The notes: generated by a model from the sequence alone, not told the origin. 64,000 nucleotides of DNA from Nanobdellota archaeon (GCA_024654505.1 JANLHN010000003.1:68314-132313); one strand, 5' to 3'; positions 25,231-36,837 are shown, counted from the stretch's first letter. Numbers and translations are program-made.

Positions 25231-25286
25231 TGCTCCCGCCTCGGCAATCGAAGATTGCACCCTCTGGTCGCTATGCTCCCGCCGAG
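25231..25286. repeat. putative attL: two partial direct copies of the tRNA-Glu 3' end (atgctcccgcc[g]) flanking a 15-nt hairpin
   Basis: 25231-25240 tgctcccgcc and 25274-25286 tgctcccgccgag match the 3' terminus of tRNA-Glu (36765-36777, tgctcccgccggg) over 11-12 nt. Hairpin gcaatcgaagattgc lies at 25244-25258. Confidence 0.5.
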
Positions 25287-25763
25287 TAAATCGCCAGCTT
25301 GGAATTTGCAGGGACGCAATTTTATTAAGATTCTAAGAGATCGCCTATTTTTAAAACTTGTCAATGCTGATTTATATTCTCCAATAGAGCATTTTCTATT
25401 ATTATAATTCAACACTTAATATAAACAGATAATGTTGTTTTAAAGAAAGACTTCTTCGCCAAAGCATGAATCAAAAATATCTCAGTAATACCTCAGAAAA
25501 AAATCTGAGATATCCCTTTAAGGAATTTAAAAATAAAAAAAGGCAATAAAAAATATGGAAAAAAGCAGAGTCACAATTACTAGGGGAATATTATGGGGAT
25601 CCACCCCTAGTAATCCTTTAATGTGCTTAAAATGGGGGCAGATTTAGCTTTAAAATGGAACCAGAAATAGTAAGCCAGCAAATAAGCAGAACATTGGAAG
25701 AGATGATTTCAAAATTAAAATTTATGATAGAAGAAATAGAATATCAAATCAAAGCAATTCACG

Positions 25764-25964
25764 ATGGCAAGGAAAAACACAAAGATTCACTTCGTAATTG
25801 AAACTTCAACTAAAGAGCTTTTGATAAGGGAAGCTCAAATGCAAGAAATTTCTTTAGCGGAGTTATGTAGGCAGAAACTAAAAAGAAATTCAAAATTAAT
25901 CAAAATTGAGATGATGTTAGAAGAATTAAATAAAAAACTTATAGAAAATGGCAAGATCCAATAA
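25764..25964 (+). CDS. ribbon-helix-helix (CopG/Arc-like) DNA-binding protein, probable
   Basis: 66 aa. N-terminal beta-strand then helix pattern KIHFVIETSTKELLIREAQMQEISLAELCRQKL. Immediately upstream of orc1/cdc6 on the island. Confidence 0.4.
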   Translation: MARKNTKIHFVIETSTKELLIREAQMQEISLAELCRQKLKRNSKLIKIEMMLEELNKKLIENGKIQ

Positions 25965-25976
25965 AGGCATAGATAA

Positions 25977-27164
25977 ATGCCCAGCTCCGATGGGATCTTT
26001 GAATTTAAAGGCGTTTGTGGGGCGATCCTGGGCTGTTTGTGCGGTTATTTTAGCCAAGGTGTTAGAATGATACTAAAAGATAAGGGTGTCTTTGACATTA
26101 ACCGCATTCCTTCGGTTATTCCTGTAAGAAATAATTTAATTGAAGAAATAGTAAATAAAATAAGATTAAGCGAGGTTTATCGGCTCTTCATTAGCGGAGT
26201 AACGGGGAACGGGAAAACAAGTTCTGTAAAAAGAGCTTTAGAAATTTTAGGTAATGAAATTATTCCAGTTTACATAAATTGCTCTGAAACAAATAGCTAT
26301 ACTTCAATTTCAAAACACATCCTTGAAATTGTAAGAGATAAGCCTTTTAGTGAAAAAGGAAAAAATAGAGATGAACTTGCTGATGAATTAAAAAGAATGC
26401 TTTTAACTAAAAGAACAAAGAAATTAGTTTTTGTTTTTGATGAAGTTGATAAACTAATAGAAAAGAAAGATAATCATGTGGATATATTCTCTCCGTTACT
26501 CAATTATGGGAAAGTTAGTTTTATTCTTATTTCAAATGATCCAAATATCTTTGGAAAAATGCAGGGAATGTTAAGAAGCAGGATGCAGTTAGAAGTTAAA
26601 ATGCTAAGTGCCTATCAGCCAGGCGATATTCTTGAAATATTAAAACAGAAAGCAGAAGAGGGTATGATTGAGGGAAGTTATGATATTGAAACCCTCGCAA
26701 CAATATCTAAGTTTAGCTCAGATATTTGGGGAGACATAAGAGTTGCAATAAAACTTTTAGAAAAAACAGCAGTTATTACAGAAATGCTTGGAAAAGATAA
26801 AATTTCAGAAGAAATTATTAAAGAAGCAATAAAGGACTTGCAGATGTCTGAAATAGATAAAGTATTTCCAACTCTTCCAAGGCATTTAAGATGGGTTGTT
26901 GTTGCTTTATGTTTAGAGTCAAGAAAAAATAATGGCTTTGCAGTCACATACCCAAACGCCTACGAAACCTATGGTTTACTTGCCCAAAAGGAGCGGTTTG
27001 GTAAGGTTGGAGATAGGCAATATAGAGCTTATTTAGATGATTTAGAAATGTTAAGGCTTTTTGATTTTCAATGGAAGCCTGCTGTTAATCGTCGTGGAAG
27101 GGTTAGAATAGCTATTCCCAAGTTTGATTTTGAAAGCTTTTTAGTTGGCATTTCTGCTGAATAA
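25977..27164 (+). CDS. Orc1/Cdc6-family AAA+ replication initiator (island-encoded)
   Basis: Walker A GVTGNGKTSSVK, Walker B LVFVFDEVDKL, sensor-1 ILISND, C-terminal winged helix. True start probably Met at 26067 (MILKDKGVFDINRIP...). Confidence 0.7.
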   Translation: MPSSDGIFEFKGVCGAILGCLCGYFSQGVRMILKDKGVFDINRIPSVIPVRNNLIEEIVNKIRLSEVYRLFISGVTGNGKTSSVKRALEILGNEIIPVYINCSETNSYTSISKHILEIVRDKPFSEKGKNRDELADELKRMLLTKRTKKLVFVFDEVDKLIEKKDNHVDIFSPLLNYGKVSFILISNDPNIFGKMQGMLRSRMQLEVKMLSAYQPGDILEILKQKAEEGMIEGSYDIETLATISKFSSDIWGDIRVAIKLLEKTAVITEMLGKDKISEEIIKEAIKDLQMSEIDKVFPTLPRHLRWVVVALCLESRKNNGFAVTYPNAYETYGLLAQKERFGKVGDRQYRAYLDDLEMLRLFDFQWKPAVNRRGRVRIAIPKFDFESFLVGISAE

Positions 27165-34582: not shown

Positions 34583-35386
34583 ATGCCAAATTATATGAAT
34601 AGCGACATAATTGATTTGATGATGGAGGATGTGCTACATTTGGAAGAAATTACTTATTTTGATAAATTATATTATGTCTTTGATAGGCATAGAACATCTT
34701 TTTTATGTTGGGCTAAGGCATTAAAGGAGAGAGCAATACAAAAGGATAATTTACTGATAACAATAGATAAGCATTGCGATTTTTTCATAGAGGATTTAAA
34801 GAAAGAGCACATAGAACTTGCGAAATCTCTCGATATTAATAGAATTCGCAACAATATTAAAGAAAATAACAAACAGGATTTCATAGTTATGGGTATGGAA
34901 ACAGGAATAATCAAAGATGTTGTTATAATTAGCCCCCTAATAAACAAAGCAGAATTTCCTAATGGATTACCTGAAAATTATAAAGATACCAAAGGGAATA
35001 TCCATAAAGCTTTCTACTTTAAGGAGATTAAAGACTTTGAGGCAAATTTCAAGGAAAAGATTGGACAAAATGCCTTATTGGATATAGATTTAGATTATTT
35101 TCAAACACATACTAAAAATATCGATGATCCAATTGAAAAATGGAAATATACTAAGAAAAGCACAAAAGAAGAAAGAAGAAGTCTATTCAAACCTGGCACA
35201 AAATTGAATAATGTTTTTAAAAATGTTAAAGCGATAACTCTTGCAGAAGAAATGAGATATTCTCAAGGCAAAGGAAGACAATGGGCAAGGGAATTTATTG
35301 ATTTGTTCTTTTCATTAGAAGAGTTTAATCATGGTGGTGATAATCCTTTCAATTTAGAAGAAGAGGACGTAGAATATTCTGAATGA
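34583..35386 (+). CDS. hypothetical protein (island cargo)
   Basis: 267 aa, acidic C-terminus. No confident family. Confidence 0.35.
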   Translation: MPNYMNSDIIDLMMEDVLHLEEITYFDKLYYVFDRHRTSFLCWAKALKERAIQKDNLLITIDKHCDFFIEDLKKEHIELAKSLDINRIRNNIKENNKQDFIVMGMETGIIKDVVIISPLINKAEFPNGLPENYKDTKGNIHKAFYFKEIKDFEANFKEKIGQNALLDIDLDYFQTHTKNIDDPIEKWKYTKKSTKEERRSLFKPGTKLNNVFKNVKAITLAEEMRYSQGKGRQWAREFIDLFFSLEEFNHGGDNPFNLEEEDVEYSE

Positions 35387-35507
35387 TTCGCCCAAGAGTG
35401 CCAAAAGTGTAACGAAAAGCCGAACGGGGGCGGAGAGTATGTATATATTATTATTTAATATTATAATAATAGTAATACACCTAAAATGAAAGAATTTTTA
35501 GTTATTT

Positions 35508-36746
35508 TTATTGATTTTGCTTTGCTTCTTGCAACTCTTTCATCTTTCTTTGAAGGTCTGCTATCAAAAGAGCTCCTTCGTTTGATTGTTGTTGGATTGT
35601 ATCAAACTTTTCCATTAAAATTTGGTTTTGCTTTTCAGATTCGAGCAAACGCTTCTCCATTTCTGTTTTAGTTAGGTCTAAAAGCAAATCCTCTTCTGTT
35701 ATTGTATCCTTCATACCTAAAAGTTCGCTGTAATAATGAATCTTATCGCTCTTCTTCCAACCGAACCTATACTTGAGGGCATTTTCATTCTTATATCTTG
35801 GAAGCCAATAGCAACATGAACAATGCCTAAAGTCATACATCGTAAGGTTAGAATATTTCTCACCAGCAGGACTTAAACCCTCTCCGAATATTCTCTGCCC
35901 TAATCTTTTCAAATACTTATTAGTTGAGGCAGGATCAATATCAAAAATATAGTCCTCTGCTTTTAATCCGTTATTTCTAATAAAATCTTTAAGCAAATCA
36001 GAAGAAAGCATTAACTTGATTCTTCTTCCAAAAGTTTTAGAAATTTCATCCCTAATGTTTAGCTCTTTGCATTCTTTGTTTAGGTCTGAAACTTTGATAT
36101 TGATTAATTCAGAAGGAGCTCTCATTCCAGTATCCAAAAGAAACATAATAAGAACTTTGTATTCGTATTTACAATTATCACAAAGTTTCCTTATTTGTTC
36201 TTCAGTAAGATAAACCCATTCTGGCTTTTCTCGAGAGTTATCCAAATCAGAAGTTATATCGATAATAGCATTCCCTTCTTTTCTGCTTGATTTGATATAC
36301 CAATGCCAGAATGCTTTGAAAGTTTTAATAAAATCTACAAAGGACTTATAGTCTTTTCCATCTATCCTCTTTATTACTCCGTTTCTCATATCAGTAAAGA
36401 AAGAATGAAGTTGCTCTTCTTTTATCTTGGTGATATCATCGATGTTATAAATTTCTTTGAACTTTTTAATAAGATAAACGAGTCTCGTCCTTACAGAGAT
36501 TAAACGATTAAACCCCCTTGGTCCTTTCTTAGTTCCAAGAGTTATGTTTCTGCCAACTTCCATATCTCTTATGTAAGCAAGAATTAAATCAGAGTTCACC
36601 TTGCTAATTTCAGAAATTCCTTTTTCTTCAACTTTCTTTTTCCAAGAAATGAACCTTTCTTGGTTTTTGTAGGGGTCTCGCTTCATATTTGTTTGAAGGC
36701 AGAATTGCTTAAATTCTTCTGCCACCTTTTTGGTGCGTCCCCACAA
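35508..36746 (-). CDS. tyrosine recombinase / phage-type integrase
   Basis: 412 aa. Catalytic-domain motifs LLDTGMRAPSEL (box I Arg), YDFRH (His-x-x-Arg region), C-terminal Tyr region. Lies directly 3' of tRNA-Glu. Confidence 0.75.
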   Translation of the reverse strand: MWGRTKKVAEEFKQFCLQTNMKRDPYKNQERFISWKKKVEEKGISEISKVNSDLILAYIRDMEVGRNITLGTKKGPRGFNRLISVRTRLVYLIKKFKEIYNIDDITKIKEEQLHSFFTDMRNGVIKRIDGKDYKSFVDFIKTFKAFWHWYIKSSRKEGNAIIDITSDLDNSREKPEWVYLTEEQIRKLCDNCKYEYKVLIMFLLDTGMRAPSELINIKVSDLNKECKELNIRDEISKTFGRRIKLMLSSDLLKDFIRNNGLKAEDYIFDIDPASTNKYLKRLGQRIFGEGLSPAGEKYSNLTMYDFRHCSCCYWLPRYKNENALKYRFGWKKSDKIHYYSELLGMKDTITEEDLLLDLTKTEMEKRLLESEKQNQILMEKFDTIQQQSNEGALLIADLQRKMKELQEAKQNQ

Positions 36747-36764
36747 AATTCCAATTTGGGTTTA

Positions 36765-36837
36765 TGCTCCCGCCGGGATTTGAACCCGGGTCGCTGCCGT
36801 GAAAGGGCAGTATCCTTGGCCACTAGACTACGAGAGC
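36765..36837 (-). tRNA. tRNA-Glu (anticodon UUC)
   Basis: Reverse complement: acceptor GCUCUCG/CGGGAGC, D-arm GUCU-AGUGGCCAA-GGAU. Anticodon stem CUGCC/GGCAG with loop CUUUCAC. T-arm CCGGG-UUCAAAU-CCCGG. Discriminator A. Confidence 0.8.

Follow-up and report, generated by a model that had tools for sequence, protein, structure and literature searches.

The stretch analysed here (the window) comprises 64,000 nucleotides from a Nanobdellota archaeon (GCA_024654505.1, JANLHN010000003.1:68314-132313), with positions counted from its first letter. Between a topoisomerase IB gene and a tRNA-Glu(UUC) gene it holds an interval of about 11.5 kb, for which an earlier note had proposed an integrated element carrying an integrase, an Orc1/Cdc6 initiator and defence-type genes. 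The interval is very probably an integrated, plasmid-like mobile element in a DPANN host of the Woesearchaeota/Pacearchaeota/Nanoarchaeota group. Its two ends are marked by the following features (loci compared with the window are numbered with the prefix L).

25196: start of the topoisomerase IB gene, profile-confirmed, which flanks the distal end
25230-25272: third core copy (25230-25241), degenerate, ATGCTCCCGCCT, 11/12, plus 31 bp; outside the present element
25273-25284: distal attachment (att) core, attR, ATGCTCCCGCCG, an exact copy of the tRNA-Glu(UUC) 3' end
25299-25318, plus strand: left arm of the terminal inverted repeat, TTGGAATTTGCAGGGACGCA, 14 nt inside the core
36734-36754, minus strand: right arm of the terminal inverted repeat, TTGGAATTTTGTGGGGACGCA, 9 nt inside the core; conserved in L021-L024
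36764-36775: proximal att core, attL, the last 12 nt of tRNA-Glu(UUC), reading ATGCTCCCGCCG on the plus strand
36764-36838, minus strand: tRNA-Glu(UUC), found by ARAGORN and by Rfam (63.9 bits), acceptor stem intact

The 12-bp direct repeat ATGCTCCCGCCG is identical at 12 of 12 positions at the two ends, and one copy forms the 3' end of the intact tRNA. Integration left tRNA-Glu intact and the core doubled at both ends. The interior of the element spans 25285-36763 (11,479 bp); as a circle with one core it would measure 11,491 bp. The 3' end of the tRNA had been said to recur twice at 25231-25286. It does so exactly at 25273-25284 and with 11 of 12 positions at 25230-25241, but the boundary lies at 25273-25284, not at 25231. 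The degenerate third copy resembles the true distal end over 21 nt at 81% and, because of this likeness to the element's own end, it and the adjoining 31 bp are probably the scar of an earlier, related insertion. Similar accretion is found elsewhere, as tandem cores upstream of the integrase in L022 and as a two-core scar in L103.

The inverted arms inside the cores are specific to the two ends. The pattern TTGGAATTT.{1,4}GGGACGCA occurs twice in the 64 kb, inverted, once per element end, and it is also kept in L021 and L108. Joining the ends in silico gives an attP in which the 12-bp core lies between inverted arms, the layout expected of a tyrosine-recombinase site. The predicted attP junction reads TGCGTCCCCACAAAATTCCAATTTGGGTTT-ATGCTCCCGCCG-AGTAAATCGCCAGCTTGGAATTTGCAGGGACGCA and the predicted empty attB reads GCACCCTCTGGTCGCT-ATGCTCCCGCCG-GGATTTGAACCCGGG. 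The shift in base composition that the earlier note proposed to look for is present, with a GC content of 0.305 inside against 0.344 in the rest of the window, the lowest among all 11.5-kb stretches of the window. Every gene of the element is an intact open reading frame (ORF) and, as had been claimed, the genes are of accessory type with no core genes interspersed.

Next to the tRNA lies the gene of the enzyme that would have carried out the integration.

35508-36686, minus strand: tyrosine integrase, 392 aa, intact; Pfam Phage_integrase, 5.8e-12

Its start had been placed 19 nt from the tRNA, which does not hold. The ORF can be extended to an upstream TTG 17 nt from the tRNA, and the start conserved among 38 homologues is the ATG at 36686, 77 nt away. 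The ORF aligns end to end with these 38 homologues and the att core lies outside it, so that the gene stays intact after integration. The signature is R189...Y284xxR287...Y318/Y319, with the motif reading MYDFRH. In the 39-sequence alignment R189, Y284, H288, H317, Y318 and Y319 do not vary, and K217 and R287 vary little or not at all.

Two classes of archaeal integrase are relevant here. In type I (SSV-type) the integrase gene itself contains the att site and becomes split when the element integrates; its signature is R...KxxR...Y (PMC7253208, PMC8371274). In type II (pNOB8-type) the signature is R...YxxR...Y and the integrase gene is intact on integration (PMC8371274). Judged by its YxxR motif and by the gene being intact after integration, the present integrase is of type II, and the same two traits exclude the SSV type, which is likewise archaeal and tRNA-targeting. 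A split SSV-type integrase, with an N-terminal part in an ORF across the distal repeats, was considered and ruled out, the integrase being full length. That 406-aa ORF proved to be an artefact of ORF listing, namely the topoisomerase IB frame extended upstream.

Homologues of the integrase number 2,280 at E<=1e-5. All but one of the named integrase relatives, and the best relatives of the topoisomerase IB, come from Woesearchaeota, Pacearchaeota or Nanoarchaeota metagenome-assembled genomes (MAGs). A tRNA lies within 450 nt upstream of the integrase in 40 of the 75 metagenome loci that have enough upstream sequence, mainly tRNA-Asp (13), Glu (11-12), Gly (7) and Ser (5). A tblastn search of 72,556 plasmid records gave one weak bacterial match and nothing else.

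The family is unusually well conserved, the best 120 of the 2,280 homologues (about 380-455 aa long) being 57-66% identical with one at 93%, and its sole sequence relative in the PDB is XerA (E 0.003). Both facts would suit an ordinary chromosomal region, with the integrase as a host Xer-like recombinase and the 12-mers as chance matches or tRNA-related debris. The chance expectation for the 12-mer ATGCTCCCGCCG in the 64-kb window is 0.01 matches, however, and the integrase stands beside different tRNAs, with different cargo, in different genomes.

Independent copies of the element bear directly on its boundaries. In L108, a JGI metagenome contig, sequence 92-93% identical to window 25273-33088 spans the distal end, the 66-aa protein gene described below, Orc1, AbiE, PDC-M33 and the methyltransferase. 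The upstream flank of L108 is unrelated to the window, its core is the variant ATGCCCCTGCCG, and similarity begins at the first core base (25273). L021, from an NCBI MAG of about 29% G+C, is a 5.5-kb element with different cargo beside an intron-containing tRNA-Glu(CUC). It shares three segments only with the window, the tRNA end with the integrase (88.5%), an 84-nt non-coding segment termed seg84 (90%), and, at 87%, the far end that includes the inverted repeat and core; the similarity stops exactly at the core. L022-L024 encode integrases with 97-99% protein identity, and their similarity to the window opens at 36775-36800, either at the core or immediately past it.

Compared at sequence level, these loci fix the boundaries to the base and indicate recent movement between sites and hosts, because 92-93% identical copies occupy other flanks. 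The earlier proposal of an integrated element at tRNA-Glu is borne out by the core repeat kept in L108 and L021 and by similarity that ends at it. Similarity that starts and stops at the cores is not what an ordinary chromosomal region would give, nor is a locus (L103) that has the site without the integrase. These comparisons effectively refute an origin by chance or from the chromosome alone, and the probability of such an origin is practically negligible. L022 and L024 were also considered as free attP forms, having a core without a tRNA body upstream of the integrase. The left inverted repeat is missing there and the cores are in tandem, and these loci were instead taken as element arrays.

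The site itself can be followed in relatives. In L103 the gap between the EgtD-like gene and topoisomerase IB is 556 bp and holds tRNA-Glu(UUC) but no integrase, which is the empty arrangement that the earlier note had proposed to look for, in a distant locus (topoisomerase IB 64% and EgtD-like protein 41% identical to those of the window). At 7560-7880 of L103 the opposite-oriented tRNA-Glu is accompanied by a second, truncated tRNA-like copy, whose upstream region is duplicated, and by two core copies enclosing a 60-nt scar in which AATTCCAATTTG of the element arm recurs. This layout suggests a past integrase-mediated inversion or deletion.

Between the same EgtD-like/topoisomerase IB gene pair, L049 (9772-14577) carries a 4.7-kb sibling element whose ends are a 12/13 repeat of its tRNA-Glu end and whose integrase is 62% identical. 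Its cargo includes a 396-aa RVT_1 reverse transcriptase with an Rfam RT-16 RNA (83.8 bits) overlapping its start; by these matches this DPANN integrative element appears to carry a retron. L060 and L079 have EgtD, tRNA and integrase in the same order as the window, and L102 has a truncated integrase near topoisomerase IB. From these gene orders the tRNA-Glu/topoisomerase IB/EgtD site is a recurrent hot spot, reused across lineages. Among 20 GTDB genomes retrieved by topoisomerase IB (relatives about 50% identical), none had tRNA-Glu adjoining that gene.

The tRNA-distal part of the element begins with what appears to be a replication module.

25286-25763: non-coding region of 478 bp, upstream of the RHH-like and Orc1 genes; conserved in L108
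25764-25964, plus strand: 66-aa protein, ribbon-helix-helix (RHH)-like by inspection
25977-27164, plus strand: Orc1/Cdc6-type AAA+ initiator; Pfam Cdc6_lid, AAA_22, Cdc6_C

The initiator matches PF13401, PF22703 and PF09079, all above the cut-offs, corresponding to the AAA+ module, the Cdc6 lid and the C-terminal winged helix. Its score against TIGR02928 (NCBIfam) is 150 bits, below the cut-off of 181.3 bits, and the protein is therefore divergent from the cellular equivalogs. The 478-bp region holds perfect palindromes of 11 nt (25576-25586/25604-25614) and 9 nt (25477-25485/25505-25513) and is a candidate replication origin or operator.

The 66-aa protein had been labelled RHH. That label lacks profile support, there being no match in Pfam, NCBIfam, PADLOC or PHROGs profiles, and the single-sequence AlphaFold2 model, one long helix with a predicted template modelling score (pTM) of 0.44, is uninformative on the RHH fold. 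Homologues at 39-46% identity occur in other loci, mostly loci retrieved via the integrase, and the protein is a possible regulator or partner of Orc1. The block between the Orc1 and AbiEi genes (window 27159-27262) is 90-92% identical at L064 523-700, although the AbiE proteins of L064 are merely 30-41% identical; it is another conserved junction between modules.

L050 (2262-11296) shows how far the arrangement extends. Its integrase is 60% identical and its backbone runs integrase, flank110, slot, seg84, cargo, Orc1, where flank110 is a second conserved non-coding block. The far end of L050 carries a 63% identical Orc1, from which it follows that Orc1 belongs to the family backbone. The cargo of L050 is an N6_N4 DNA methylase, a ResIII helicase and a DUF4209 protein, resembling type III restriction-modification.

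The two non-coding blocks enclose a variable cargo slot.

34473-34558: seg84, non-coding; one border of the variable slot
34583-35386, plus strand: 267-aa protein with a partial UPF0489 domain; fills the slot
35393-35502: flank110, 110-nt non-coding, directly 3' of the integrase stop codon; the other slot border

Seg84 (84 nt, with invariant TGGAAAACGGACGTTTT) is 82-94% identical in nucleotides where the integrase genes are 68-73% identical. It is found at L021 13848-13931, L024 12132-12213, L023 6838-6919, L050 2074-2155, L064 2852-2935, L032 10946-11025 and, in L107, just before 7333. Flank110 is found in L021-L025, L107 and L050 and twice in L064; it is near-invariant while the integrase coding sequence differs by 4-12%, and BLAST breakpoints of five relatives fall at 35391-35394. 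It holds a TATA-like AT-rich stretch followed by CTCTCCGCCCCCGTTCGGC. What lies between the two blocks differs from locus to locus: the window has the UPF0489 gene there, L107 a 4.5-kb NUDIX/kinase/phosphatase cassette, L021 other genes and L023 almost nothing. The 267-aa protein had been called unknown; a partial UPF0489 domain was found in it.

Neither block has a match in Rfam or a conserved ORF, and seg84 has no match in IMG/VR. Structured RNAs were considered and rejected, with z-scores of -1.5 to +1.9 against shuffled sequence and no compensatory pairs. Seg84 and flank110 may act as linkers when modules are exchanged, as a promoter with a terminator, or as operators. A bolder proposal joins these observations, namely a family of integrative plasmids, so far undescribed and spread across DPANN, that target tRNA genes and replicate by Orc1, and in which seg84 and flank110 are the cis-acting sites that define a cargo-exchange slot; there the blocks could act as sites of recombination, or as operator or regulatory RNA modules. 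This joint proposal is put forward tentatively and is, taken whole, unlikely. If true, it would mean a swapping of defence-gene cassettes distinct from integrons and from plain homologous module shuffling.

The rest of the element is cargo, much of it with matches to defence systems.

27319-28841, plus strand: AbiEi antitoxin and AbiEii nucleotidyltransferase toxin; type IV toxin-antitoxin/abortive infection
29012-29296, plus strand: 94-aa protein, overlapping the M33A start; weak match to phrog_35258 only
29293-32742, plus strand: PDC-M33 candidate defence system, M33A (612 aa), M33B (292 aa), M33C (DUF6339, 248 aa)
32749-33909, minus strand: D12-class N6-adenine DNA methyltransferase; Pfam MethyltransfD12 1.1e-40, PADLOC MTase_II
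34004-34168, plus strand: 54-aa ORF, no family match
34170-34475, plus strand: 101-aa hydrophobic protein, no family match

Profile searches upheld the earlier assignments of Orc1/Cdc6, AbiEi/AbiEii, the D12 methyltransferase, the tyrosine integrase and topoisomerase IB. AbiEi is matched by PADLOC at 2.5e-38 and AbiEii by PADLOC at 2.5e-59 and by Pfam AbiEii; the two genes overlap at 27921. The unrelated locus L075 has the AbiE cassette at 89% nucleotide identity. At the 3' end of the AbiEii gene 111 nt are tandemly duplicated (28807-28841 against 28918-28952, 77% identical), a segment that is single-copy in L107-L109.

What had been called a GHKL cassette corresponds to PADLOC PDC-M33A/B/C, three co-oriented genes with full-length matches (E about 5e-165, 1.5e-78 and 4.7e-73). 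No GHKL domain was detected in M33A by sequence profiles or by a PDB sequence search; the fold comes from the structure model. The top 50 PDB matches found by Foldseek for the AlphaFold model (36 homologues; predicted local distance difference test, pLDDT, 79.3) are all GHKL ATPases, with a best E of 6e-8, and include Topo VI-B, Hsp90, GyrB/ParE, MORC4 and SMCHD1. M33A is thus confirmed, at the level of the model, as a GHKL ATPase with the Bergerat ATP-binding fold. Homologues of PDC-M33 are mostly clostridial. The 94-aa protein is conserved with M33A in L107-L109 and partly in L110.

The D12 methyltransferase adjoins the M33 genes in every copy. In Clostridium sp. FP2 (L111 3899-9491) a 634-aa N6_Mtase gene directly precedes the PDC-M33ABC trio. 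The association of a methyltransferase with M33 is thus conserved across domains with the methyltransferase family differing, which suggests that the methyltransferase is a functional member of PDC-M33. In the present element it may act as the self-marking partner of the system, and its position in both the archaeal element and Clostridium suggests that PDC-M33 may depend on methylation.

The 54-aa ORF had been described as AbrB-like, a label for which profile support is absent; with the 101-aa gene it forms a pair conserved in L107. Two GACGTC-centred palindromes, TAGACGTCTA and TGGACGTCTA, lie at 33939-33973, where the D12 methyltransferase and the 54-aa ORF have their divergent promoter region, and may serve as operators or be targets of methylation. 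The seg84 palindrome also contains GGACGT.

The gene content bears on whether the element is a plasmid or a virus, which the earlier note had left as alternatives. A provirus, that is a temperate virus genome, or a virus satellite, an element packaged into virions with a helper, would account for the tRNA-linked integrase, which is typical of temperate viruses, and could draw on five small or unassigned proteins (66, 94, 54, 101 and 267 aa) and on the poor representation of DPANN virus proteins in profile libraries. No capsid, portal, terminase or packaging ATPase gene of the element was matched in PHROGs or Pfam, however, and replication, defence and integration genes fill almost all of the coding capacity. 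The integrase has no relatives in 50,697 phage records or in IMG/VR contigs, from which seg84 is likewise absent. A viral origin is accordingly very improbable, and of the two alternatives the plasmid-like one, with its Cdc6-type initiator, is the better. Profile searches of the element gave no match to conjugation or casposase genes either, and no relaxase or oriT was recognised in it.

The anatomy suggests the following life cycle of a plasmid-like mobile element. Its own type II (pNOB8-like) integrase would have recombined attP with the 3' end of tRNA-Glu(UUC), strand exchange taking place inside the 12-bp core ATGCTCCCGCCG. The inverted repeats of 20 and 21 nt, 14 and 9 nt from the core, are likely the integrase-binding sites of attP. 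The excised circle would replicate through its own Orc1/Cdc6 at the adjacent 478-bp palindrome region, recruiting the host replisome. The cargo (AbiE, PDC-M33 with the D12 methyltransferase, and the swappable slot) would protect the host from viruses and stabilise the element. Since sibling elements carry a retron or a type III-like restriction-modification system, the family appears to behave as mobile, exchangeable defence islands at tRNA genes.

Several findings weigh against this account. The att core is merely 12 bp long, and the distal and proximal cores of L021 differ at 3 of 12 positions. No excisionase was recognised in the element. An exact-pattern scan of metagenome contigs for the predicted attP junction gave 0 matches, which at contig level is weak evidence, and no terminal overlaps indicating a circular form were found among contigs of the compared loci. 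The replication origin is a predicted one. No exact copies of the flanking proteins are on record, and hence there is no same-species comparison; L103 is distant, its tRNA-Glu is inverted relative to the window and it bears a small scar, so that it is not a clean isogenic empty site.

Some of these findings would fit a fossil, a chromosomal defence island that was inserted by the integrase, is no longer mobile and does not occur as a replicating circle. The missing attP junction, circular contig and excisionase agree with such an island, as does the 111-nt duplication at AbiEii in the window copy, and the scars in L103 and the truncated integrase in L102 show that elements at this hot spot do decay. 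In the window, however, the cores are identical at 12 of 12 positions, the integrase ORF is complete and keeps every conserved catalytic residue, and every element gene is an intact ORF, while the 92-93% identical copies in other flanks point to recent movement. An immobile island is therefore fairly unlikely, and a mobile plasmid-like element is preferred.

Archaeal elements that integrate at tRNA genes, have a type II integrase and carry defence cargo are a well-known kind, to which this one belongs. Elements of type II (pNOB8-type) were reportedly described by She et al. Common to these and the present element are the intact integrase gene, the R...YxxR...Y signature, the lambda-like scheme of integration into a tRNA gene and the duplicated core. 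The host of the pNOB8-type is Sulfolobales, whereas the present element has a DPANN host, a size of 11.5 kb, an Orc1/Cdc6 initiator and no conjugation apparatus. The SSV-type differs in its split integrase gene and KxxR motif, the present gene being intact with YxxR.

Bacterial tRNA-linked genomic or defence islands and integrative mobilisable elements have a tyrosine integrase by the tRNA 3' end, direct repeats and low GC, carry interchangeable anti-phage cargo at a hot spot and show tandem accretion with scars. All these traits are common with the present element, in which the replication module is the archaeal Orc1/Cdc6.

A closer likeness is found in Thaumarchaeota, where cryptic integrated elements bear an integrase, are mostly <20 kb and lack virion or conjugation genes (Krupovic et al. 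2019, PMC6563490). Some of them encode Cdc6/Orc1, a presumed recruiter of the host replisome, and their cargo includes restriction-modification and other defence genes (PMC6563490). By its gene content, with an integrase present and virion, conjugation and casposase genes not found, the present element is a cryptic integrated element in the sense of PMC6563490. The thaumarchaeal elements belong to a different phylum and integrase family and have no signature genes beyond the integrase, whereas the present family has a recognisable backbone (the att arms, flank110 and seg84, with Orc1 in L050).

A literature search on PDC-M33 and on integrated elements of DPANN, Woesearchaeota or Pacearchaeota found no paper describing the present family. 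It is a large DPANN family without description in the virus and plasmid reference collections or the literature searched. Most DPANN archaea are uncultivated; their genomes are tiny, and little has been described of their mobile elements. The locus provides a precisely bounded DPANN integrative element that has a 12-bp core, an attP which can be reconstructed, an intact integrase, an initiator of its own and a candidate origin. An integration or shuttle vector could be built from these parts, which are easily tested in vitro. The locus also shows that archaea with small genomes gain anti-virus systems on exchangeable islands linked to tRNA genes, among these systems AbiE, a retron, type III-like restriction-modification and the bacterial-type PDC-M33 with its methyltransferase.

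Outside the element, beyond the tRNA side, profile searches identified an EgtD-like methyltransferase, a cytidylyltransferase and CTP synthase. An intron-containing tRNA lies at 38395-38514 on the plus strand (Rfam 58.4 bits), which ARAGORN missed at its defaults; long-intron tRNA-Glu(CUC) genes are integration targets in several relatives. On the other side, a partial topoisomerase IB (P0121, NUV97_03165) from a 12.5-kb MAG contig is 100% identical to that of the window over 310 of 333 aa. The missing residues would place the end of that contig at a distance of about 70 nt from the att region, consistent with an assembly that broke off at a variable element.

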